Origin: Anaerolineae bacterium
GTDB taxonomy: Bacteria > Chloroflexota > Anaerolineae > S140-20
Assembly: GCA_027021705.1 (NCBI GenBank)
Contig: JALUTT010000140.1
Location: forward strand, 1 to 25,772
Direction: 5' to 3'
DNA: 25,772 nucleotides
The stretch's first letter is position 1. Each line of letters opens with the position of its first letter. The notes under the pieces were generated by a model. That model saw only the letters and a list, made by a program, of their open reading frames with translations, made no database searches and was not told where the DNA came from. Of the stretch, positions 4,973 through 25,090 are shown one piece after another. Both the position numbers and the translations under genes were made by a program.

Positions 4973-6799
4973 ATGGATCGTAGAGCAGCATTTACCCGGC
5001 CTGACTGTCGGAAAGGGCCATTGTGGCCCGGCTTGTGGCGGGTTGGGAGTGGGAAGGCCCTAAGCGGGGTGCTCCTGGCTCTGGGGATGGTGGCGTTGGT
5101 CCTGCTGACCGCCCGCGCCGCCGGAGAGGGGGACCCAGAATGGTCTACCGACTCCCTCCTCGACTTCAGCAGTGGTACTATGGATGGCGTGGACGTCTGG
5201 AGCGATCCGGGGACGGTGCGGTTGGACCGAGCCTGGTACGCCAACGCACGGGTGAACGATGCCTCAAGTCAGGACAAATTTGACCCTCGGCTCTCCTTCG
5301 TCCTCACCAACACCGGAGGCACCACAACGACCATCTTCCTGATCGTGTGGGCGGATGAGCGTCACTCAGACCAGTATCCAGACATCTTCTTCTCTCAGAG
5401 CACCGACGGCGGTCAAAGCTGGTCGGCCGATGTCCAGATAGCTGACGATTGCTACCCCAGCAGCCCCCCCTATCCGAATTGCCCCAGCCTCCACACCCCG
5501 GACATCGCCGTGCGCTTGGCCGACCAGAGTTTCTGGGTGGTGTGGCATCAGGACCAGAGGGAGACGGGGACCGATCGGGGAGACATCTACTACGCCGTCA
5601 GCCACGACAAAGGGGCCTCGTGGTCCTCCCCCGCCTCGGTCTACACCGGCACGGGAAAGCAGCTCCGTCCCCGCATCGTTTCCCACGGTCAATCGGGTTA
5701 CCTCTATACCATCTGGGAGGATGAGCGGGACGATGCCGGCGACATTTACATCAGCCGCTACAACCCGGACGTGGACACCGCCTGGAGCTCTCCGGTCAAG
5801 ATCAACGACGACGGTGCCGGCAATGAACAGAGGGAGCCCGCCCTGGTCGTGGACGGCGAGGGGAATGTCTACGCCGTCTGGGAGGATACCCGCAACGACC
5901 CGGATGGGCAGATTTACTTCTCCCGCTGGATGAGCGGCACCACCTGGGGGACCTGGAGCACCAACACCCGGCTGAGCGATCCCTTGATGGACTGGGGGCG
6001 TGACCCCGACATCGTCGCCGGGCCGGGCGGCGTGCTCTTCGCAGCCTGGGTAGAGCGAGTGCCTACCGGACCTGCTTCCTCGACATATGACTTCCAGGTC
6101 GTGGTGGCCCGGAGCGATGATGATGGGGGAACTTGGACCTCCTCGGTCGTGCACCGGCTCGACAAGGCGTCGGCATCCAATGCCTTTTACGCCGCCCCTG
6201 CCATCGGCATAGGCCCCGCAGGAGTGGTCTACGTGGCCTGGCTACACAGCCCGGATTCCCAGGCCAGCACCTCCAACATCCTCTTCTCCCAGAGTCCTGA
6301 CGGGGGCATCCACTGGACCCGGCCCCGTGTCCTCAGCTCGCCGGGAGGCACCGTGGATGTGGACACCTCCCCCACCCTGCTCTCCAACCTCTTCGCGAGT
6401 CCGGTCGCCGTCGCCTGGCAGGACTTCCGGGACGGGGCCAGCACCCAGATCTACGCCACCGGCTATCCGGCCGACCACTACCTCACCAGCGGAGAGTACA
6501 ACCGCACCCTCGATGCCGGTGGTCCGGCAGCCTGGGGTAACATCACGTGGACGGCCACCATCACACCGGGCACCGACCTGGTGCTCGCCACCCGCGTGAT
6601 GACGGCCGTCGGCGCAGGATGGACAGCGTGGTACACGCATACCGCTTCCGGTGAGGCCATCCCCCATCCCTCCGGCCGTTTCATCCAGTACCGGGCTCGC
6701 TTCACCTCCGGCGGGAACGACACCCCGGTGCTGGACAAGGTCGTGATCTCCTACGAGCAATACCGCACCTACCTGCCCTTCGTGCTGAGGAAAAGCTAA
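4973..6799 (+). CDS. Secreted BNR/Asp-box repeat protein (sialidase-like beta-propeller) with C-terminal YLPFVLRK motif
   Basis: RBS AAGGAGG at 4960-4966; hydrophobic signal ending ARA-A; Asp boxes STDGGQSW, SHDKGASW, SDDDGGTW, SPDGGIHW; repeated vvWeD motifs. Confidence 0.8.
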   Translation: MDRRAAFTRPDCRKGPLWPGLWRVGSGKALSGVLLALGMVALVLLTARAAGEGDPEWSTDSLLDFSSGTMDGVDVWSDPGTVRLDRAWYANARVNDASSQDKFDPRLSFVLTNTGGTTTTIFLIVWADERHSDQYPDIFFSQSTDGGQSWSADVQIADDCYPSSPPYPNCPSLHTPDIAVRLADQSFWVVWHQDQRETGTDRGDIYYAVSHDKGASWSSPASVYTGTGKQLRPRIVSHGQSGYLYTIWEDERDDAGDIYISRYNPDVDTAWSSPVKINDDGAGNEQREPALVVDGEGNVYAVWEDTRNDPDGQIYFSRWMSGTTWGTWSTNTRLSDPLMDWGRDPDIVAGPGGVLFAAWVERVPTGPASSTYDFQVVVARSDDDGGTWTSSVVHRLDKASASNAFYAAPAIGIGPAGVVYVAWLHSPDSQASTSNILFSQSPDGGIHWTRPRVLSSPGGTVDVDTSPTLLSNLFASPVAVAWQDFRDGASTQIYATGYPADHYLTSGEYNRTLDAGGPAAWGNITWTATITPGTDLVLATRVMTAVGAGWTAWYTHTASGEAIPHPSGRFIQYRARFTSGGNDTPVLDKVVISYEQYRTYLPFVLRKS

Positions 6800-10327: not shown

Positions 10328-10419
10328 TCGTCCCTCCTCTCTGCCACGGGTACGGAAGCCCGCTCTACAAGGATCGAACGCCCATCCGTTCAACCTGCTC
10401 TCAACCGGTGTTCCATCCC

Positions 10420-11712
10420 TCACCCCTCGGCCCTCAGCACCGCCCTCGTCCGGTCGTTGCCGATGGCGAGGAGGACACACCCCACCACTCGAAGGCCATA
10501 CCACGCCGTTCGCAGCGGGTGGCCGGCCGCCCGGGCCATCGCCATCCGCAGCCGATAGAGCCGCACCAGGGCATCGCATCGCCGCAGACGGCGGGCCAGG
10601 GGATGCGCCCAGGCTATCCGCTGAGAGGCGGCCTCCCCCATCCCCTGCCGTGCCTCCAGCTCGGCCAGGGTGAGCAGGATGTCCAGAACCTTGTGAGGGT
10701 TGCCCAGCCCTTCCCAGAGGTCCAACGCCTGTCCCAGCCAGTCGCGGGCCTGGGCGATCTCCCCCTGATCGGCGTAGAGACGGCCCCGATGCTCGGCGTA
10801 GTCGGCCCGGCCGGCGGTGTCCTCGGCCTGCTCCCAGAGGGCAGCAGCCCGCTCCAGGCACTGCCACGCCTCCTCCCACCGGCACTGGCGACGGTAGAGG
10901 TCGCTCAGGTCGCCCCAGGTATAGGCCAAGCCGGTGATGTCACCCGCCGCCCGGCTCAGGCGCAACGCTTCCCGGTAGCAGCGCTCCGCCTCATCCCAAG
11001 AGCCCAGATCGGTCAGCGGCAGGGCCAGGTGGCTGAAGAAGCGCCCCCGGCTGCGGGAGTAGTCGGGCGTGTCAGGGCAGAGGCGAAGGGCCTGCCGGAA
11101 ACAGTGCACCGCCCGTCGCCACTTCCCCTGACGCCAGCGGACCAGCCCCACCGCGTTCCACACCTGGGCCATCAGGGTCGCCCCATCGGGGAGGCGGCGA
11201 GCCCAGGCGGCCGCCCGGCGATAGCAGCGCAGGGCTTCCCGCCACTCACCCCGGAACCAGTGGACACGCCCTAGGTCGAACCAGGCCGCGGCGATGCCTC
11301 GGGCTTCGCGACCCCGGCGGAAGGCCTCCAGGGCACGTCGGTGGACCTGGAGGGCCTGCTCCCATTGACCGCTGCCGCAATAGGCGTTCCCCAGGCAACG
11401 GAGCACGTGACCACGCAACGCCGAGCTCTCCTGGCGGGTCAACGCCTCGGCGATCCGCTCCAGGTAGGCGGCCCAACTGCGCCACCGGCCCTGCCGCAGC
11501 ATGTAGTCCTCCAGGGCCAGGGCGATGCGGGCGGCCCTCGGCCAATCGCCGGCATACTCGCCGCAGGCCACCATCGCCTGCAGGAGGTTGTCCCGCTGGC
11601 GGTCCAGCGCCTCCAGGTCGCCCCGATGGCGGTGGAGGTAGTCCAGGCTGAAAGCGGCCAGTCGGAGCACCTGTTCGGAGAAGAGGCGCCGCCGGGCCTC
11701 AACCGTCTCCAT
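10420..11712 (-). CDS. Tetratricopeptide repeat protein (STAND-type sensor domain encoded as a separate gene)
   Basis: Repeated LG..(Y/H)...G.W.EA..CY..AL helices. RBS GGAGGTG. 14-bp overlap with the upstream NB-ARC gene. Confidence 0.88.
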   Translation of the reverse strand: METVEARRRLFSEQVLRLAAFSLDYLHRHRGDLEALDRQRDNLLQAMVACGEYAGDWPRAARIALALEDYMLRQGRWRSWAAYLERIAEALTRQESSALRGHVLRCLGNAYCGSGQWEQALQVHRRALEAFRRGREARGIAAAWFDLGRVHWFRGEWREALRCYRRAAAWARRLPDGATLMAQVWNAVGLVRWRQGKWRRAVHCFRQALRLCPDTPDYSRSRGRFFSHLALPLTDLGSWDEAERCYREALRLSRAAGDITGLAYTWGDLSDLYRRQCRWEEAWQCLERAAALWEQAEDTAGRADYAEHRGRLYADQGEIAQARDWLGQALDLWEGLGNPHKVLDILLTLAELEARQGMGEAASQRIAWAHPLARRLRRCDALVRLYRLRMAMARAAGHPLRTAWYGLRVVGCVLLAIGNDRTRAVLRAEG

Positions 11713-13153
11713 CCGCTTCCCACCTCCCCAGCAGCTCGCTCATCACAAAGGTGTGGGTCAGTTGATGGATGGTGTACCGTTTCGTCGCCCGCCCGGCAAC
11801 CTGGAGGAGCGACATCTCGACCAGTTGCTCGATGGCCCGGTCCAGCCGGTCGTTGGGGAGCGCCGTAGCCGCCTGCAGGTTCTCCCAGTAAGCTCCGCTG
11901 GGGGCCAGCGCCGGCATCGCCAGGAGCACCCGCCGTGCGTCGTCGTCCAGCACCTCCCAGGAACGCCAGTAGATGAAGCGGTAGAGGTCCTCGTACCGGC
12001 GTCCCGTCGCTTCCTTCAACGCGGCGAGTACCCGGTTCAGGGGCAGGAAGCGAGCCTGACCGACGACCAGCTTGATGGCCAGGGGATTGCCTCCGGTCAC
12101 AGCGTAGACTTGGGCGAGGGCTTCATCGTCCGCTTCGGCCAAGGAGGCCACGCCCCGCCATCGGGCCTCGTACCGCATCAGGGCTATGCTATCGGTCTCG
12201 CTCAGCTCGCCCAGGGTAAGGCAGAAGACGGTGGGATGCCGTCCCAGGCTGTGGCGGCTGGTGAGGAGAAAACGGGTGGGATTCGCCAGCTCCCACAGGC
12301 GGGGGATCAGGACCTCCCGGTCGGCCATCGCCTCCAGGTTGTCCACGACGACCAGGTAGGGCTTGGCCTGGAGCAGGCTCTGAAGCCGGGCCAGCTTCTG
12401 GGGGAGGGGCCGACGGACCAACTCGGGTCGGTCCAACTGGACGGCGAGCCGGTCCAGGAATGCCTCGAAGGTGAGAGACGGCCCCTCCTCCCCCGGCCCG
12501 ACGAGCCCAATCCAGGTGGCAAAGCGATAGGGATGGGCCGTGATCCAGAAGACGTCGGCGAAACGGTCCTCTTTGGCCGCCCACGTTGCCAGTTGGTGGG
12601 CCAGTGCCGTCTTGCCCAGCCCCCCTAGCCCCTCGATGCTGATCAGCCAGGGGCCTGGGGCGGTCAGGAGGGCCCGGAGCTGGGCCAAGATGGCTTCCAC
12701 GCCGAAGAGGCGGGCGTAGGTTGGTGGTGGCAGGTGGCGCTGCCGATGGCGTTGGCGCTGAAGAGCCTGCCGTTGGGCCTCCTGCTCGATGCGCCAGAGG
12801 TGATGGGTCAGGGCTTGGAGAGCCTGGCTCTGACGGCTGTAGAGGGTGCTCTCCCCCACCCCCTGCTGATAGGCAAGCTGGACCACGCTCTTCTGGCGCC
12901 AGAAACGCTGCTCCAGGAGGGTGGCAGCGGTCACATCCTGAGCCATCAAGGATTCCAGGGCCTGCCTCAGGACACGCCGCAGGGCCATCGCCCGCCCCAG
13001 AGGGGTATCGGGCAGCCCTTCCCGGCGGCGCACCTCTCCGACAGCGGTCAGTTCGACCAGCGGATGTCTGCCCAGGTCCCGGTCACGGTGAAGGCGTTTG
13101 AGCGCGGTGTGGACGGTCTGGGTGAAGTGAGCATCCAGGGACCACGAGGCCAT
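11699..13153 (-). CDS. STAND/NB-ARC ATPase with N-terminal HTH-like region and C-terminal winged helix; no fused sensor repeats
   Basis: LFG motif, Walker A GLGGLGKT, Walker B LVVVDNLE, LLTSR, GGNPLAI, terminal IHQL (MHD-like). N-terminal LEQRF...SVVQLA...GVGESTLYSRQ..AL resembles a sigma region 4/LuxR-type HTH. Start uncertain (13153 or up to 13252). Confidence 0.85.
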   Translation of the reverse strand: MASWSLDAHFTQTVHTALKRLHRDRDLGRHPLVELTAVGEVRRREGLPDTPLGRAMALRRVLRQALESLMAQDVTAATLLEQRFWRQKSVVQLAYQQGVGESTLYSRQSQALQALTHHLWRIEQEAQRQALQRQRHRQRHLPPPTYARLFGVEAILAQLRALLTAPGPWLISIEGLGGLGKTALAHQLATWAAKEDRFADVFWITAHPYRFATWIGLVGPGEEGPSLTFEAFLDRLAVQLDRPELVRRPLPQKLARLQSLLQAKPYLVVVDNLEAMADREVLIPRLWELANPTRFLLTSRHSLGRHPTVFCLTLGELSETDSIALMRYEARWRGVASLAEADDEALAQVYAVTGGNPLAIKLVVGQARFLPLNRVLAALKEATGRRYEDLYRFIYWRSWEVLDDDARRVLLAMPALAPSGAYWENLQAATALPNDRLDRAIEQLVEMSLLQVAGRATKRYTIHQLTHTFVMSELLGRWEADGDG

Positions 13154-13162
13154 AGGCTGCAA

Positions 13163-13226
13163 TGGAGGTCTGCCGGAGATTTCTCGGAGGTTTTCCAGAG
13201 AAACCTCCGCCCCAACAGGGTATGCT
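13163..13226 (+). promoter_or_regulatory. Four 11-bp-phased direct repeats followed by candidate -10 TATGCT
   Basis: tGGAGgtctgc, cGGAGatttct, cGGAGgttttc, cAGAGaaacct at 13163, 13174, 13185, 13196. TATGCT at 13221-13226. Confidence 0.5.
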
Positions 13227-13233
13227 ATAGGGC

Positions 13234-13482
13234 AGGGGGCAGCCCGGACCAAACCCCGGCGTGCGACAGGAGATCGGGGGTCTCACCAGGGCTGTCCCCT
13301 TCTTTGCGGAATCGGTCCGTCGGTTCGGGATTATTGTACCACAAGGCCGGTAAGTCAGACAAGGCCGACGCCGACGTAGCTGTTCACCCTCCCGCAGGTT
13401 AGGCGCATTTCCGACTCGAAACCGTGTTTCAAATAGCCCATCGGGGCTGAAAGCGCCCTCGACCAGTGACCTGCGGGAGGGT
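13234..13482 (+). ncRNA. Candidate structured 5' leader / ncRNA with two long stems
   Basis: 12-bp stem 13234-13245/13289-13300 and 16-bp stem 13386-13401/13467-13482 enclosing inner hairpins. The single imperfect pair in each is G-U on the + strand. Confidence 0.4.
13333..13362 (-). promoter_or_regulatory. Putative promoter of the NB-ARC/TPR operon
   Basis: TTGTCT-18 bp-TACAAT with TGn extension on the minus strand. Confidence 0.55.
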
Positions 13483-13520
13483 AGGCTGAATAGATAGACG
13501 CTGACAAGGAGGTGATTGCG

Positions 13521-14723
13521 ATGAAGCATCTCAAGGCTTTGGGGATCGTTCTCGGACTGGTCGTAGTGCTGACGCTGGCGGTGAGCCTCACGCTGGCCCA
13601 AGGGCCGGGGCCGGCAGAGCAAGTCTCCCCCCAGGGGGAAGTCTCGGTCCAAGGAACGGTGAGTAGCAAGATCTCCTACCAGGGTGTGCTCAGGGAGAAC
13701 GGCAACCCGGTGAACGGCACGCGGACCATCACCTTCACCCTCTACTCCGATGATACCTGCGCCACCGAGGTGGATTCCATCGTCAAGAGCGGGGTGCCCA
13801 TCACCAACGGGCTCTTCAGCGTAGAGTTGAACGTAAACCACGATGACTTCAACGGCCGGTCCCTGTGGCTGGGCGTGGAGGTAGACGGCACCACGGTGGG
13901 GTGCCAGGAGATCCTGCCCGTTCCCTATGCCCTGAGTCTGAAACCGGGGGCGGTGATCAGCGACAGCGACGCCTACGTGGGGGTGAACTACTCCTACAGT
14001 TGGGGCCAACCTCTCCCCATCTACGCGAACGTATACGGGCTATACGCCGAGACCAAGGGAAACAACATCACCGCCTGGTACTACGGCGTGTACGGCTCCT
14101 CGGAATCCGACCACGGCTACGGGGGGTTCTTCAAGAACAGCCACAGCAGTGGAGCCGGCCTCTATGCCATAGGTGGGAGCGACAGCGCAGCCGACTTGGT
14201 GCTGGGGGCCAACTCCGACACCAATGACAACGGCGTTATCGCCTCCGACCCCAATCGGAGCAGCAGCGACATCGTGCTGAAAAGCAACGACAACGTGCGC
14301 ATTGACCTGGACAACGATCAGAGTGGTGAGGACGCGGACTTCGAGATCTACGACAAGGACGACAATCTGATCTTCGACGTAGACGAGAGCGGGGATGTCT
14401 CCCAGCCCTTGACCGCCGACGGCCTGGTCAAGGCGGCCGTCTACGCCAACTGCCGGTCCTCGGGGTCCAGCGTCTTCCGCTCCTTCAACCGGGTCAACGG
14501 CCAGGCGATCACCATCGCCAACGGCACGAGCGCCGGCCGCTGTTCCCTCACCTTCAACTTCGACCTGAGCAGCCGCTTCTGGGTGGCGATGCCCGCCTAC
14601 ACGGGTGCGGCCCGCACCGTCAGTTGCGAGATTGACGCCGGGAACACCCAGAAGCTCAACTGCGCTCGCTTTGACGTCAACGGAAACGGTGTGGACGGCA
14701 ACATTATGGTGTTGGTCTACTAG
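13521..14723 (+). CDS. Secreted beta-rich protein with ISYQG.L...GLFSV.L...WL.VEV...VPYAL N-terminal module (fibre/adhesin-like, function unknown)
   Basis: RBS AAGGAGGTGA at 13506-13515; signal peptide ending TLA-Q; central YGLYA/YGVYG/YGGFF/AGLYA repeats; Cys-containing C-terminal domain. Confidence 0.8.
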   Translation: MKHLKALGIVLGLVVVLTLAVSLTLAQGPGPAEQVSPQGEVSVQGTVSSKISYQGVLRENGNPVNGTRTITFTLYSDDTCATEVDSIVKSGVPITNGLFSVELNVNHDDFNGRSLWLGVEVDGTTVGCQEILPVPYALSLKPGAVISDSDAYVGVNYSYSWGQPLPIYANVYGLYAETKGNNITAWYYGVYGSSESDHGYGGFFKNSHSSGAGLYAIGGSDSAADLVLGANSDTNDNGVIASDPNRSSSDIVLKSNDNVRIDLDNDQSGEDADFEIYDKDDNLIFDVDESGDVSQPLTADGLVKAAVYANCRSSGSSVFRSFNRVNGQAITIANGTSAGRCSLTFNFDLSSRFWVAMPAYTGAARTVSCEIDAGNTQKLNCARFDVNGNGVDGNIMVLVY

Positions 14724-14772
14724 TACCTCATCAAACGGACTTTGCCAAACCGCTTGCGGAATCGTCGTCTCT

Positions 14773-14973
14773 CATCCGCTCAATCCGTTTTCAAATCCGT
14801 TGACAGTTATCCGCTCCAAGACGGACGGCTGTCAACGGATTCGGGGAGCGGATTGAACGGATTGCTTGCGGAGCAGCCGCCTCCCATCCGCTCAATCCGT
14901 TTTCAAATCCGTTGACAGTTATCCGCTCCAAGACGGACGGCTGTCAACGGATTCGGGGAGCGGATTGAACGGA
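14773..14973. repeat. Two identical 89-bp REP/MITE-like palindromic elements (112-bp period)
   Basis: CATCCGCTCAATCCG...AATCCGTTGACAG...CTGTCAACGGATT...CGGATTGAACGGA at 14773-14861 and 14885-14973. Confidence 0.92.
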
Positions 14974-15059
14974 GAGGGGTGCTCCCATAGGAGATGAACC
15001 AACGGGTCGGAATCATCTTGATGAGGTACTAGTCGGAGCGGTGAAAAGGAGGCGAAGGG

Positions 15060-15338
15060 ATGGACAAGCGGATCCTGATGATCGTGGTGGGCCTCCTCCT
15101 CGGCAGCCTCCTGCTGACCACGGCCACCCTGGCCGGCGGCGGCCATACCCTCTCCTGGAGCGTCCTGGGGGGTGGGGGCGGGTCCGTTGGGAGCGGCGGC
15201 ATCACCTTGGACGGGACCATCGGCCAGCCAGTGGTGGGGCAGGTCGGCGACTCATCCTACACGCTCTGTGCCGGCTTCTGGTGTGGGGTGGCGGGAGAGT
15301 ACCGGGTCTACCTGCCGGTGGTGCTGCGGGGAGCGTAG
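15060..15338 (+). CDS. Small secreted Gly-rich protein (W...GGGG...L.GTIGQP...Y.L..GFW) with C-terminal YLPVVLR motif
   Basis: RBS AAAGGAGG; signal peptide ending TLA-G; GC-rich third positions. Confidence 0.82.
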   Translation: MDKRILMIVVGLLLGSLLLTTATLAGGGHTLSWSVLGGGGGSVGSGGITLDGTIGQPVVGQVGDSSYTLCAGFWCGVAGEYRVYLPVVLRGA

Positions 15339-15363
15339 GCCCTTATCGCGCCGGGCAGCAGTC

Positions 15364-15398
15364 GAGCGGGGTCCCCAGCGGCCCCGCTCCTCTGTTTC
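15364..15398 (+). terminator. Possible intrinsic terminator
   Basis: GAGCGGGGTC / GGCCCCGCTC stem followed by a weak pyrimidine tail CTCTGTTTC. Confidence 0.45.
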
Positions 15399-15506
15399 CT
15401 CGGTCCTAGCAGCGCAGGGGCGGAGTGGCCTGATGGCCGTCGGCAGTTCTCTATCGTGGACTCCCCATCCGCGGCAGTCTCTCGGCAGCCCGCCCCGGCA
15501 GCGCGT

Positions 15507-15535
15507 TTGACATTTCTCCCTCTCCGTGGTATGAT
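15507..15535 (+). promoter_or_regulatory. Sigma70/SigA promoter of the hrcA operon
   Basis: TTGACA-17 bp-TATGAT with TGn extension. Confidence 0.9.
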
Positions 15536-15552
15536 TTGCCAGGTGTCACGAT

Positions 15553-15579
15553 TTAGCACTCTCAACTTGAGAGTGCTAA
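15553..15579. promoter_or_regulatory. CIRCE operator (HrcA binding site)
   Basis: Exact TTAGCACTC-N9-GAGTGCTAA between the promoter and hrcA. Confidence 0.98.
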
Positions 15580-15601
15580 ATCGTCTAAGAGGTGTGCACG
15601 T

Positions 15602-16669
15602 ATGGGGAGGCCAGGTGTGGGTCCTTATGAGGCTTCTGAAGCAAGGATGCTGACCCCCCGGCAGCAGATGATCCTGGGGCTGGTGATCCGCCAGTACGTG
15701 GCCCAGGCCCGGCCGGTCAGCTCGCGGGCCGTCGTCGAGGCCTACAACCTGCCCTTCAGTCCGGCGACGGTGCGCAACGAGATGGCCCGGCTGGAGGAGT
15801 TGGGCTACCTCACCCACCCCCACACCTCCGCCGGTCGGGTGCCCACCGACCTGGGCTACCGCTACTTCGTGCAGCGGCTCCTGGGCGAGACGGCCCTCTC
15901 GCCGGCCGAAGAACGGATGATCCGCCACCAGTTCTACCAGGCCCAGCGGGAGATGGGGCAATGGCTGCGCCTGGCGGCCAGCACCCTGGCCCGCACCGTG
16001 CGGACCGTCTCGCTGGTCACCGCCCCCCGGGCCGAGCAGGCCCGCTTCCGCCACCTGGAGCTGATCTCCACCCGAGGTCGGCTGGTCCTGCTCATCCTCG
16101 TCCTCCAGGGGGGCACCGTCCAGCAGCAGATGCTCACCCTGGCGGAGCCCCTGAGCCAGGACCGTCTCAGCCAGACGGCCCAACGGCTCAACGACCTTTG
16201 TGCCGACAAGACCATCGCCGAGATCGAAGCCCAGGCTCGCAACCTCCCCACCCTGGAGGCCGAGGTCTGCGACCTGGTGCTGGAGATAATGCGGGATGTC
16301 GAGAGCCGCGCCATCCCCGAGGTCTACCGAGACGGCCTGACCGAGGTCCTCCAGGAGCCCGAGTTCACGGAAAGCGAGAGCGCCCAGAAGCTGCTTCGGC
16401 TGCTGGAGGAGGAAAGCCTGCTGGCCGAGGTGCTCAACGAGGCCCTCTCCCCCTCGGCCGACGGCGTGCAGGTGCTCATCGGAGGCGAAGGGCGGTGGGA
16501 AGCCCTGAGCCATTGCAGCATGGTCCTGGCCCGCTACGGCATCCCCGGCACCATCACGGGAGCCCTGGGGGTGCTGGGGCCGACGCGGATGCGGTACGGA
16601 CGGGCCATCTCCGCCGTGCGCTACATCGCCGATCTGATGACCGACCTGGTCTACGAACTCTTCGTCTAG
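15602..16669 (+). CDS. hrcA: Heat-inducible transcription repressor HrcA
   Basis: LT.RQ..IL, PVSS, SPATVRNEM..LEELGYL..PHTSAGRVPTDLGYR.FV, GVLGPTRM.Y. Start could be 15602, 15617 or 15647. Confidence 0.97.
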   Translation: MGRPGVGPYEASEARMLTPRQQMILGLVIRQYVAQARPVSSRAVVEAYNLPFSPATVRNEMARLEELGYLTHPHTSAGRVPTDLGYRYFVQRLLGETALSPAEERMIRHQFYQAQREMGQWLRLAASTLARTVRTVSLVTAPRAEQARFRHLELISTRGRLVLLILVLQGGTVQQQMLTLAEPLSQDRLSQTAQRLNDLCADKTIAEIEAQARNLPTLEAEVCDLVLEIMRDVESRAIPEVYRDGLTEVLQEPEFTESESAQKLLRLLEEESLLAEVLNEALSPSADGVQVLIGGEGRWEALSHCSMVLARYGIPGTITGALGVLGPTRMRYGRAISAVRYIADLMTDLVYELFV

Positions 16670-17442: not shown

Positions 17443-17617
17443 ACGGATTGGAAGAGAAGGTAACGGATTGGGGGAGCGGATTGAACGGAGAAGGGGCGCT
17501 TTCCCATCCGCTCAATCCGTTCTCAAATCCGCTGACAGCTATCCGTCCCCAAACGGACGGCTGTCAACGGATTGGGGGAGCGGATTGAACGGAGAGGAGT
17601 GCCCCCAGAGGATATGA
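17443..17617. repeat. REP/MITE-like palindrome cluster (one full 89-bp copy at 17505-17593 plus a preceding right half) between grpE and dnaK
   Basis: Same family as 14773-14973, and similarity continues about 25 bp downstream of the palindrome. Confidence 0.9.
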
Positions 17618-22870: not shown

Positions 22871-25090
22871 TTAGAGGCCGAGGAAGGCCCCTGCTTGCCG
22901 GAGCGTCTCGAGGATAAGGGAGAAATCGCCGTCGGCAAGCATTCGCCTGAGAGGTGTGGACCTCAAGAAGCGATCCCGCTCAGCCAGCGAGGGGATCTCA
23001 GATGCCCGTTCCAGCAGAGCACAACGGGCCTCCTCCAGGCCACGGATGGCCCGGTTCCCATCACCCTGATGGTGGGCCACGGCTGCTTCCAGCGTATGAG
23101 CGAGGACTTGGTGACGTTCCTCGCCGCTAGCCTTCAGAGCCTTCCAGGCTGTCGCCATGGCCTCGGCTGCGGCTTCCACGTAGCCTTTTGCAAGCCCGAG
23201 TTGGCAACGCAGCAGCGCAATAGCCCCCTGATAGCGAGAGCATTCTTCGCCCCCGCTCAGACTATCCGCACGGTTGATCCAACGCCGAGCTTCGTCCAAC
23301 AGCCCCTGCTGGCCAGCCAGTGAAGCCAGTTCTAAAGCAGCCTCCACCTCATACCGGGAATCAGCCAGTTCGCCGGCTCTGCGGCGAGCGTAAACAGCCC
23401 ACAATCGCGCTCGATCTCGATCGCCCGTCCGACTGTAGAGACGTGCAGCTCGACACGCAAGCCAGACTTGCGTTTCCCGATTCCCCAGGATGTTGGCCAG
23501 ACGCTGGGCTGCTTGCAGATGGTTCATCGCAGCGATAAAGTCACCTAACTCGCGCTCGGCACTGGCCATATTACCCAAGATGATCGCCCGAACCAGGGTG
23601 GCGGGACTTTCCGGCGTCAGCGCCAAGGCGAGCCGAGCTTGCTCCAGCGCCAGCCAGTCGTGCCCCAGATATGTGTAGACGCTGGCCAAGTTGTTGTGGT
23701 CCAACCGTCTCCACTCCGGCCGGTCCGCATCCAGAGCAAGCGCCTTCTGGTGATAAGCCAGAGCCAGGGGATACCTCCCCAGCATCTCGTAACAGGTTCC
23801 CATCAGCCGCAGCGCCTGAGCCCGCAAGTGCGAATCATCTTCGGCCAGCTCGAGAGCCGCCTCTGCCAGACGAAGGGCTTCCTGCAGCCGCCCTTCCCGT
23901 TGGGCCAACCAGCACTGTCGAGCCCGGACCTCGCTCTGAACATCGCTATCAGCCAGTGTCTCGGCCAGGCTCAGGGCTTGTTCCAGGTTTCGGGCCTGAG
24001 CCTGACGCTGGGCAGCCCGGTCATAAAGGGGATCGCAGCGCAATCGGAGCGTGAGCTGATGCCGTAGATTCGCCGATGTCGGAGCCAGGTCCTCTAAGGC
24101 CACCAGCGCCGTCTCATAGGCCTGACGAGCTATTTCCCAAAGGTGCTGAGCTTCGGCAACCTCCCCAACCTGTTCAGCTTCCACCACCAGGGCTTGACCA
24201 AGGCGCTGAGTCATCTGACGGACGGCAAGCATAACCGAGTGAGAAAGCTTGGGATCCACCAGCAGCCGAGCGAGATTGGCCAAGGCCAACGGCATTCCCA
24301 CCAAAGTGTCCAACGTCGGAGCCCCCCGAGCAGGCAATCGGAGCAAACGGGTCACCCGGTCGGCGGGGGAAAGGCCCAGTTCCTCCCGCCAGATCCGAGC
24401 GTAGCGTTGGTAGGCGGTCAGTGCAGCCTGATGCTGCCCCAAGGCCAGGTGCAGTCGGATTACGGCCTCGTGACCGGCCTCGTCATAGGGTTCAGCTCTC
24501 ACCAGTTCTTCGGCATAGTGAAGAGCACGCACCAGGTCCCCAGAAGCTTCGTAGCCTGTGATCAGGACTTCCAGCGCCCGAAGATAGCGCTCTTGGTAAC
24601 GCAGCCGGGGAGGATAGCACCATTCTGCATCGCAGCCTGTCAACAGAGGTCCTCGATAGAGACGCACGGCCTGCTCCAAAGATTTCAGCGTCTCTTCATC
24701 TGCTTCGAATTCGTGCTCCGGCGTCGGAGCCACCGGGACAGTGCAAGCCTCGAACTCGTCGAGATCGAGCCAGGCATCCGAGGGGAGGTTCCACATAAGA
24801 GTGTGAGGAGTGCTCTGCAGGCAAGTGACTAATACACCACCGGCGATCTGGCGAAGCCGCCAGAGCAGAGTGTTGAGGTTGCGGCGAGCCTGGCTATCGG
24901 GTAAATCGGGCCAGAAAGTCCCGGCGACTCGCCACCGATCCAGGACCTCACCCCGGTGGAGGATGAAGTAACCAAGGAGGGTACACAAGGTGGGAGCACG
25001 ATGGAGATCGTGGAGGGGAGCACCCAATAGGGTCACCTGGAGCCGACCCAAACAACGGATCTGGAGTCGCTCCTGCACAGGTGTCTCCAT
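22871..25090 (-). CDS. SARP-family (wHTH + BTAD) transcriptional activator with C-terminal TPR array; no recognisable ATPase
   Basis: I.CLGRL.V, FWPD.PDSQARRNL...L.RLR, WLDLDEFE, AV.LYRGPLL, EPYDE..H...IR, EELG..P, then TPR-like repeats. Confidence 0.88.
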   Translation of the reverse strand: METPVQERLQIRCLGRLQVTLLGAPLHDLHRAPTLCTLLGYFILHRGEVLDRWRVAGTFWPDLPDSQARRNLNTLLWRLRQIAGGVLVTCLQSTPHTLMWNLPSDAWLDLDEFEACTVPVAPTPEHEFEADEETLKSLEQAVRLYRGPLLTGCDAEWCYPPRLRYQERYLRALEVLITGYEASGDLVRALHYAEELVRAEPYDEAGHEAVIRLHLALGQHQAALTAYQRYARIWREELGLSPADRVTRLLRLPARGAPTLDTLVGMPLALANLARLLVDPKLSHSVMLAVRQMTQRLGQALVVEAEQVGEVAEAQHLWEIARQAYETALVALEDLAPTSANLRHQLTLRLRCDPLYDRAAQRQAQARNLEQALSLAETLADSDVQSEVRARQCWLAQREGRLQEALRLAEAALELAEDDSHLRAQALRLMGTCYEMLGRYPLALAYHQKALALDADRPEWRRLDHNNLASVYTYLGHDWLALEQARLALALTPESPATLVRAIILGNMASAERELGDFIAAMNHLQAAQRLANILGNRETQVWLACRAARLYSRTGDRDRARLWAVYARRRAGELADSRYEVEAALELASLAGQQGLLDEARRWINRADSLSGGEECSRYQGAIALLRCQLGLAKGYVEAAAEAMATAWKALKASGEERHQVLAHTLEAAVAHHQGDGNRAIRGLEEARCALLERASEIPSLAERDRFLRSTPLRRMLADGDFSLILETLRQAGAFLGL

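Follow-up and report, generated by a model that had tools for sequence, protein, structure and literature searches.

The window, a stretch of 25,772 nucleotides covering positions 1 to 25,772 of contig JALUTT010000140.1 from a filamentous Anaerolineae bacterium (Chloroflexota; GenBank: GCA_027021705.1), carries a regulator of the STAND type that is divided into two genes. The first gene encodes a helix-turn-helix (HTH) head and an NB-ARC module, the second an arm and a tetratricopeptide repeat (TPR) sensor. The two-gene form is a stable, widespread design and not a frameshift. Head to head with the regulator lie two genes for predicted exported proteins, here called SEC403 and SEC92. We favour, with moderate confidence, the reading that the two regulator proteins form a two-subunit STAND transcription switch, for which its own promoter and the divergent SEC403-SEC92 cassette are the most likely targets.

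The two regulator genes and their junction

The regulator is encoded on the minus strand by the following features:

11699..13153, minus strand: gene of the subunit with HTH and NB-ARC (nucleotide-binding, first helical and winged-helix domains, NBD-HD1-WHD), 484 aa, with a match to Pfam NB-ARC and, by profile search, to sigma factor region 4 and AfsR
10420..11712, minus strand: gene of the arm and TPR sensor subunit, 430 aa, with matches to TPR_12 and TPR_MalT
11699..11712, minus strand: 14-nt overlap of NB-ARC stop and TPR start, ATGGAGACGGTTGA, with GGAGG just upstream, read directly from the sequence

We used open reading frame (ORF) calls, Pfam, NCBIfam and PADLOC scans, profile and BLAST searches and AlphaFold2 (AF2) models; signal peptides were judged from sequence alone. 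The longest ORF of the NB-ARC protein (11699..13252, minus strand) opens at a TTG at position 13252 and is 517 aa long. The homologues start at the ATG at 13153 (MASWSLD..., alignment consensus) and not at this TTG, so the length of the protein is taken as 484 aa. It reaches 33 bits with the Pfam NB-ARC model (cut-off 23.5). Its Walker A motif GLGGLGKTA has G178, G180, K181 and T182 invariant among 50 aligned sequences, and LVVVDNLE (D271), LLTSR (T298), GGNPLA (G354, G355, P357, L358 and A359) and IHQLT (H463) are invariant or nearly so in the same alignment. We take these to be the motifs named Walker B, TSR or RNBS-B, GxP and MHD-like in the NB-ARC literature. With Walker A, Walker B, TSR, GxP and the MHD-like histidine all present, the protein belongs to the STAND/NB-ARC proteins. 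An earlier sequence-only reading of this DNA had described an HTH-NB-ARC gene that ends just past its MHD-like motif, and the stop indeed follows 11 residues after YTIHQLTHTF.

The same reading had placed the TPR array in a separate gene with its own ribosome binding site and a 14-bp overlap, which we confirm. The junction is GGGAGGTGGGAAGCGG-ATGGAGACGGTTGA, with a Shine-Dalgarno-like GGAGG before the ATG of the TPR ORF (10420..11712). The TPR protein matches TPR_12 with an E-value of 9.8e-39 and TPR_MalT with 49 bits (cut-off 45). Its Pfam TPR matches start near residue 100, and we therefore read the non-TPR stretch of residues 1-100 as an arm.

The place of the cut can be seen by comparison with single-chain proteins. 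In the fused relative P0121 (937 aa), residues 8-467 align to residues 7-473 of the NB-ARC protein and residues 474-906 to residues 11-403 of the TPR protein, so the two genes together are colinear with one chain and nothing is missing. The family profile also matches AfsR (PDB: 8k60_I) with an E-value of 2.4e-8, where profile positions 140-465 correspond to AfsR 289-606. AfsR is laid out as SARP (Streptomyces antibiotic regulatory protein) region 1-270, nucleotide-binding oligomerisation domain (NOD) 271-618, arm 619-777 and TPR 778-993 (PMC10936776). As profile position 465 equals AfsR 606 and the NOD of AfsR ends at 618, the 484-aa protein stops where the NOD gives way to the arm, which leaves arm and sensor to the second gene. 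Other than in a single-chain STAND protein, the first chain stops after the winged helix and arm and TPR form a separate ORF; the order of the parts is unchanged.

The sequence-only reading had further called the head an HTH, and profile searches agree. We turned the 150 residues ahead of the NOD into a profile from 45 sequences; it identifies the head as similar to region 4 of extracytoplasmic function (ECF) sigma factors (PDB: 6dxo_A, E 2.3e-6), with further matches to 3hug_A (E 3.9e-4) and, more weakly, to SigL, SigF and FliA. Sigma70_r4 Pfam matches are on record for several homologues, and residues 89-151 of the NB-ARC protein itself weakly match TIGR02937. By these matches the head is predicted to be a DNA-binding sigma-70 region-4 HTH, of neither the SARP nor the LuxR class. 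Pfam found no BTAD or Trans_reg_C domain on the NB-ARC protein, which sets it apart from the SARPs. BTAD was seen on other genes, namely in the window at 22871-25090, on contig C48 of the same genome and in locus L030. The window gene at 22871-25090 (minus strand) encodes a 739-aa protein with BTAD and TPR/TPR_MalT regions and no NTPase match, a SARP-like regulator without NOD. Other heads also occur in the NB-ARC family: L045 and L066:8018 have an XRE-like HTH, while a paralogue on contig C144 of the window genome starts with a coiled coil.

The existence of fused relatives and the overlap of the two frames by 14 nt might suggest that a frameshift was introduced during assembly or sequencing, or that a fused gene was recently pseudogenised by a mutation. 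We give this explanation next to no weight. Contigs of two runs from another study, X2 (10488-12014) and X3 (10397-12856), span the junction with 0 gaps, including the stretch 11690-11720; they carry 30 and 53 substitutions relative to the window, respectively, and no indel is listed within 10342-13616. Both products are full length and colinear with the fused forms, the TPR gene has its own Shine-Dalgarno sequence and ATG, and related genes are split with differing junction geometries.

From genomes of the same class, 48 further loci were fetched. L035, with its NB-ARC gene in two pieces (243 + 214 aa), was excluded, and the 49 loci kept contain 57 NB-ARC genes of at least 400 aa. These loci, like the four metagenome loci and the 20 SEC403 loci described below, are samples of related genomes and not independent events. 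In 48 out of the 57 NB-ARC genes, a separate TPR ORF of 316-624 aa on the same strand starts between -73 and +91 nt from the stop, and many of the overlaps are 4, 10, 16, 19, 25 or 31 nt long. None of the 57 genes is fused. Among the downstream ORFs tested outside the window, 47 of 48 exceed the Pfam TPR_12 cut-off; the remaining one (L048) is an MGS-like protein. L048 is one of nine NB-ARC genes without an adjacent TPR gene. Three others lie at a contig end (L033, L046, L061:374), two are followed by another NB-ARC gene (L052:12861, L061:5135) and one has broken frames with X (L070). The last two, L031 in genome G060 and L032 in G137, are orthologues with 59% and 55% identity, where convergent genes come next and a TPR gene is lacking. 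They stem from a genus with genomes of 2.0-2.3 Mb; L033 (G169) ends too early to judge the presence of a TPR gene. Tandem runs of two to three NB-ARC(+TPR) modules on one strand were seen in L052, L053, L054, L058, L061 and L066, and in L052 and L061 two NB-ARC genes are consecutive with no TPR gene between them.

Beyond these loci, 69 of the 301 genomes of the class hold 110 NB-ARC matches (E<=1e-40), with open frames mostly of 430-570 aa and two above 850 aa. A large protein collection holds 275 homologues of near length; of the best 120 of these 275, all but one are short and TPR-less, the exception being a protein of 760 aa with TPR domains. Fused homologues of 937-1055 aa number 15. The fused Chloroflexota HTH-NB-ARC-TPR relatives (P0121-P0135 and P0108) are 41-48% identical to the window protein over HTH and NB-ARC and colinear with it over the TPR part. 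They differ by forming one chain of 760-1055 aa, a minority state found at three to six places in the tree. This is a quick maximum-likelihood tree; of its 92 rows, 16 are fused. Six changes are required to explain the fused state, and well-supported branches force at least three of them. The window clade (12 rows, support 99) is split throughout. The window genome itself holds three split pairs: the one described here, one on contig C24 (494 + 405 aa) and one on C144 (426 + 405 aa, followed by a second TPR gene). The claim of a regulator split into two genes thus holds, given the independent contigs without indel, the 48 of 57 split relatives and the few, colinear and scattered fused ones.

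An exchangeable sensor had also been proposed. The TPR partner diverges faster than the NB-ARC protein (60% NB-ARC versus 31% TPR identity in L077, 48% versus 30% in L023) and is lost in L031 and L032, which is in line with this proposal; however, these comparisons demonstrate no swap.

The SEC403-SEC92 cassette

On the plus strand, the cassette comprises the following features:

13521..14723, plus strand: SEC403, predicted exported fibre-like protein, 400 aa from ATG 13521, behind AAGGAGG
14724..15045, unstranded: dispersed repeat between SEC403 and SEC92, 322 nt, with two internal copies of 110 nt
15060..15338, plus strand: SEC92, small predicted exported protein, 92 aa from ATG 15060, behind AAGGAGG, with a YLP-box tail YRVYLPVVLRGA
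15364..15389, plus strand: terminator-like hairpin closing the pair, 10-bp stem with T-rich tail

The positions of the two genes head to head with the regulator are as described earlier, and signal peptides are again predicted from the sequence: both N-termini are basic and then hydrophobic, ending in AQG or LAG. In the AF2 model of SEC403 (predicted local distance difference test score 82), a helix covers residues 4-24; the fold shows a beta-sandwich at the N-terminus, a Gly-rich part in the middle and a beta domain at the C-terminus. Neither Pfam nor NCBIfam has a match for SEC403, and a Foldseek search of the model against solved structures found nothing at E<=1e-3. Among 8000 candidates scored there are at least 534 homologues at E<=1e-3, and the family is present in 131 of the 301 genomes of the class, in many of them in several copies. 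In a viral library 35 entries match SEC403 at E<=1e-3, and the names of some refer to tail fibres, tail spikes or collagen repeats; the domain resembling viral fibre proteins spans about 105-150 aa. Its ESM Atlas neighbours are the DUF7452, Peptidase_S74 and Collar clusters, and two larger proteins on contig C48 that share the SEC403 N-terminal domain (BLAST) end in the tail-fibre chaperone domain Peptidase_S74. The proposal of a fibre-type product is therefore supported at the level of a fibre-like domain by the ESM Atlas, the viral library and the Peptidase_S74 paralogues; SEC403 itself has no Peptidase_S74 or Collar match in Pfam as a phage-type tail fibre would.

SEC92 consists of a predicted signal peptide, a Gly-rich core, a YLP tail and little else, and belongs to a family of Chloroflexota proteins of 92-98 aa. 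Its residues 80-90 match the NCBIfam model of the YLP-box, a putative sorting motif (NF050076, sort_motif_YLP), with 14.5 bits, just below the cut-off of 15, and its homologue in genome G018 matches the second model NF053834 with 11.7 bits (cut-off 10). SEC92 and a BNR protein of the window both end in ...YLP(V/F)VLR.... We considered the YLPxVLR tail as a new sorting tag and rejected this, as the YLP-box is already catalogued (NF050076, NF053834). A literature search with the spellings of the tail returned unrelated peptides only. The pattern [YF]LP..[LIVMF][RKQN] at most six residues from the stop occurs in 50 stop-to-stop frames of at least 80 aa in the genome, versus 21 internal matches. 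Carriers of the tail in this genome are mostly exported proteins of 500-2200 aa; the window sites are 6776-6799 and 15303-15338. Near the NB-ARC loci, five YLP-box proteins were found in 724 kb, four of them SEC92-like and the fifth the BNR protein of the window.

SEC403 and SEC92 are a true pair and form a conserved cassette. They co-occur at four places in the window genome, and a SEC92-like gene adjoins the SEC403-family gene in 16 of 20 loci of other genomes (BLASTP). The two genes abut in G018 and are parted in the window by the 322-nt repeat, which has the terminal inverted sequence TAGTACCTCATCAA and gives 731 BLASTN high-scoring segment pairs in the genome. Depth has its peak at this repeat in the window. 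A near-full copy with 96% identity lies at C181:19844-20151, and repeats of this type are also found at 17462-17617 and in arrays within 1-1400 of the window.

The region between regulator and cassette

Between the two divergent start codons we found three features:

13164..13209, unstranded: phased-repeat array and candidate operator, GRAAAMCTCC (regulator sense strand) in two to three direct copies and one inverted copy
13333..13362, minus strand: sigma-70-like promoter of the regulator, TTGTCT-18-TACAAT with TG
13373..13502, unstranded: hairpin insertion resembling a miniature inverted-repeat transposable element (MITE) or a repetitive extragenic palindrome (REP), the 'long stem', 130 nt, with dispersed copies

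Phased repeats and long stems had both been noted in this region, and both are present. The direct repeats GGAGGTCTGCC, GGAGATTTCTC and GGAGGTTTTCC follow each other with an 11-nt period (13164-13196), and then comes the inverted AGAAACCTCC. This array sits between the promoter and the start codon of the regulator and is the only strongly conserved block of the leader: it is kept beside the NB-ARC start in all seven orthologous leaders aligned and also in L023, whereas the rest of the leader is not conserved. The 5.19-Mb genome has a single instance of its composite tandem form. For the conserved leader, RNAalifold predicted neither base pairs nor a consensus structure, and an Rfam scan of the window from 12900 to 15700 returned only sub-threshold, chance-level matches. 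We read the array as the likely operator of an oligomerising HTH protein. For the promoter, an extended -10 element TGTGGTA(C/T)AAT is common to G137, G060 and G169 and similar in G018.

The stem is different and turned out to be a mobile repeat and not a regulatory structure. It contains a perfect 14-nt inverted repeat (13386-13399 / 13469-13482; fold z -2.45), and 162 copies of at least 110 nt are spread over 83 contigs of the genome. The insertion is polymorphic: the X2 and X3 contigs join 13372 directly to 13503, and the summed depth over the element is 5000-48000. A role of the 14-bp hairpin as attenuator or operator of SEC403 was considered and rejected, as the hairpin belongs to a 162-copy repeat that is absent at this site in other strains. 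The MITE starts 10-11 nt upstream of the -35 hexamer of the regulator promoter. Without it, about 28 nt remain from the -35 box to the SEC403 ATG, so the SEC403 promoter must overlap the regulator promoter region.

With regard to gene neighbourhoods, a SEC403-family gene was found in five of the 49 NB-ARC loci (the window, L022, L030, L032 and L045) and in L076, one of the four metagenome loci. In L032 and L076 it lies divergently upstream of the NB-ARC gene. Four loci of the window clade had enough upstream DNA, namely L022 (L075 looks like the same locus), L032, L076 and L077, and three of them have the SEC403-family gene divergently upstream. G018, a genome of another family, keeps the whole block of TPR, NB-ARC, SEC403 and SEC92 with 61% identity for each large protein and with different flanks. 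Moreover, SEC403-SEC92 pairs adjoin the split pair with the coiled-coil head on C144 and a pair with an XRE head in G069; C144 and L076 share a further secreted neighbour of 495-535 aa. That the secreted genes are conserved neighbours is accordingly true of the G018 block and of three of the four clade loci, but with five of 49 loci it is overstated to call the pair a general neighbour of the split family.

The split family as a whole has other neighbours as well, such as exported proteins with beta-helix or Ig domains. In L026 (G010) and L055 (G135) the split pair faces three tandem genes of 165-174 aa, and the first of these in L026 is a match to Pfam Collar, the Phage Tail Collar domain (E 8e-31). 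In a large clade of the split family, made up of L025, L028, L034, L039, L042, L049, L054, L057, L062, L063 and C24 of the window genome, the divergent gene measures about 150-175 aa. In L025 it is a DJ-1/PfpI gene (Pfam, E 3.8e-17); the others were judged by size and position only.

In six of the 20 SEC403 loci of other genomes, the cassette has a fused SARP-like STAND gene, BTAD(-AAA_16-TPR), as its neighbour, in most cases immediately upstream and in the same orientation. That one cassette is thus accompanied by two unrelated kinds of STAND regulators is the best argument, by association, for STAND control of it. On contig C48 of the window genome (313-26894; L072, L073) there is an island led by a fused BTAD-AAA_16-TPR regulator of 1289 aa. 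This island contains a Lon_C-like protein, Calx-beta/beta-helix proteins with YLP tails, four proteins with the SEC403 N-terminal domain (two with Peptidase_S74) and two SEC92-like genes.

The proposed switch, its alternatives and related systems

STAND and NLR (nucleotide-binding, leucine-rich repeat type) switches are generally treated as single chains in which sensor, arm and NOD communicate in cis. The regulator described here would work in trans. Subunit 1, with the sigma-70 region-4 HTH and the complete NB-ARC oligomerisation module, ends at the NOD/arm boundary, and subunit 2 supplies the arm and the TPR sensor. The 14-nt overlap may couple translation, favouring matched amounts of the subunits. 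If the switch resembles MalT, AfsR and PH0952 in its working, its arm-sensor subunit would bind the ADP-bound NOD and hold it closed in trans. A ligand on the TPR subunit would then release or reposition the arm-sensor subunit, upon which the HTH-NOD subunit could bind ATP, form oligomers and settle on the direct repeats with their 11-nt phase. The putative targets would be its own promoter and the divergent SEC403-SEC92 cassette, in whichever direction the regulation runs. For the MalT-type STANDs, contacts between arm and NOD stabilise the closed ADP form and the inducer works via sensor and arm (PMC4381067, PMC6468293). [quoted passage not shown]

Gene neighbourhood and the conserved, genome-unique repeat array suggest that the regulator probably controls the cassette. 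Several observations weigh against this. The array lies 15-60 nt before the regulator start, and its distance to the SEC403 start is about 310 nt, or about 180 nt once the MITE is subtracted; autoregulation would explain this position no less well than control of SEC403. Upstream of the orthologue in L077 (60% identity) there are arginine-biosynthesis-like genes, with no SEC gene over 5.8 kb, and 44 of the 49 loci lack a SEC403-family gene, with other clades facing DJ-1/PfpI, tail-collar or other secreted proteins. Conversely, none of the 20 SEC403 loci of other genomes holds a split NB-ARC pair. The adjacency on C144 cannot be transcriptional in the same way, because the paralogue there has a coiled-coil head and no HTH. 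Furthermore, subunit 1 can persist alone, as L031 and L032 have no TPR gene.

A genuine two-gene STAND regulator might therefore be autoregulatory or act on distant targets, with the cassette as a chance or syntenic neighbour. The widely varying family neighbours, the loci without the cassette gene, L077 among them, and the array hugging the regulator's own start speak for this alternative, to which we assign a minor but real share of the probability. It explains less well that the four-gene block is kept across two families with different flanks, that three NB-ARC lineages with different heads adjoin the cassette, and that an unrelated STAND class does so in six of 20 other loci. Also, the promoters of regulator and SEC403 must overlap without the MITE (about 28 nt), and the genome shows no second copy of the composite repeat that could serve as a distant target site. 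An NLR-like sensor for conflict or defence, with an HTH head triggering anti-invader transcription and fibre-like neighbours derived from phages or tailocins, appears improbable to us. The family profile does match solved NLRs, AfsR and Apaf-1, and plant immune NLRs rank first among the solved structures that it matches (Roq1, E 2.5e-11). Kaur et al. (PMC8195603) describe conflict systems in which ECF-like HTH heads are linked with AP-ATPase-TPR proteins, SEC403 resembles tail-fibre domains and L026 faces three Phage Tail Collar genes. However, PADLOC has no match for the NB-ARC protein, SEC403 or SEC92 and gave only a generic TPR model at the locus, and the head is an HTH, which sets the regulator apart from the catalogued defence STANDs (Avs). 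Domain scans found no death or nuclease effector domain. SEC403 and SEC92 start like proteins with signal peptides, and 131 of 301 genomes have members of the SEC403 family, which is multi-copy. The window is free of phage genes, and the locus is flanked by an aroK-aroB fusion gene (8654 to about 10300, minus strand) and the hrcA-grpE-dnaK-dnaJ operon (from 15602). We retain the two-subunit transcription switch acting on its own promoter and on the cassette.

A broader version of this switch is more tentative, and we rather doubt it: filamentous Chloroflexota might routinely build two-polypeptide NLR-type switches whose HTH-NOD core gains, loses or exchanges its sensor, here as a dedicated single-site regulator of a surface-fibre cassette.

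Among known systems, AfsR, the large SARP of Streptomyces coelicolor (PDB: 8k60, 8jke), is likewise a transcription factor with an NB-ARC-type NOD, an arm and a TPR sensor. The TPR protein matches the NCBIfam AfsR model at positions 731-914, and AfsR also has an MHD-like latch region (10.64898/2026.09.02.748808). It differs by being one chain with an OmpR-type winged helix and BTAD head, whereas the window regulator is cut into two genes and has a sigma-70 region-4 HTH head. MalT of E. coli and PH0952 of Pyrococcus (PDB: 6mfv) follow the same logic of NOD, arm and sensor, with autoinhibition through arm and NOD (PMC4381067, PMC6468293); the family profile matches PH0952 with an E-value of 1e-6, and the TPR protein passes the Pfam TPR_MalT cut-off. 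Both are single polypeptides, and MalT has its LuxR-type HTH at the C-terminus, whereas the arm and sensor of the window regulator would act in trans. In the openly searchable literature we found no description of a split HTH-NB-ARC + TPR regulator; PMC13581612 mentions 'split proteins' in the methods only, for Avs7 and Dsr1. To call the system undescribed, as was done before, is nevertheless too strong, since its parts are of known kinds (NB-ARC STAND, TPR sensor, sigma region-4 HTH, YLP-box). New are the clade with the sigma region-4 head, the position of the cut between NOD and arm, the phased repeats that are conserved in orthologues and unique in the genome, and the repeated association of STAND regulators with SEC403-SEC92.

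The locus lies on contig C140 of the 5.19-Mb genome, which consists of 183 contigs and has an estimated completeness of 95%. Public runs with this DNA carry the label hydrothermal vent metagenome, and close homologues are labelled Thermoflexia, Anaerolineae or Chloroflexota bacterium in their source records. Ahead of the hrcA-grpE-dnaK-dnaJ operon, at 15507-15579 of the window, there is a near-consensus sigma-70 promoter TTGACA-17-TATGAT followed by the perfect inverted repeat TTAGCACTC-N9-GAGTGCTAA (15553-15579), which is presumably of the CIRCE type.

With its cut between NOD and arm, this natural and widespread version of the STAND switch lends itself directly to tests of autoinhibition and activation in trans, and the split design would show how sensors get lost, duplicated or replaced. 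The predicted DNA-binding head and the genome-unique repeats make this member unusually testable, with one regulator, one site and two promoters. Besides, the cassette links two poorly understood features of Chloroflexota, a large family of fibre-like exported proteins and the YLP-box tail, a putative sorting motif according to NCBI. If the broader and more doubtful version is true, a dedicated switch would tie an NLR-like sensor to the remodelling of the cell surface and would give a handle on the unexplained YLP-box sorting pathway.

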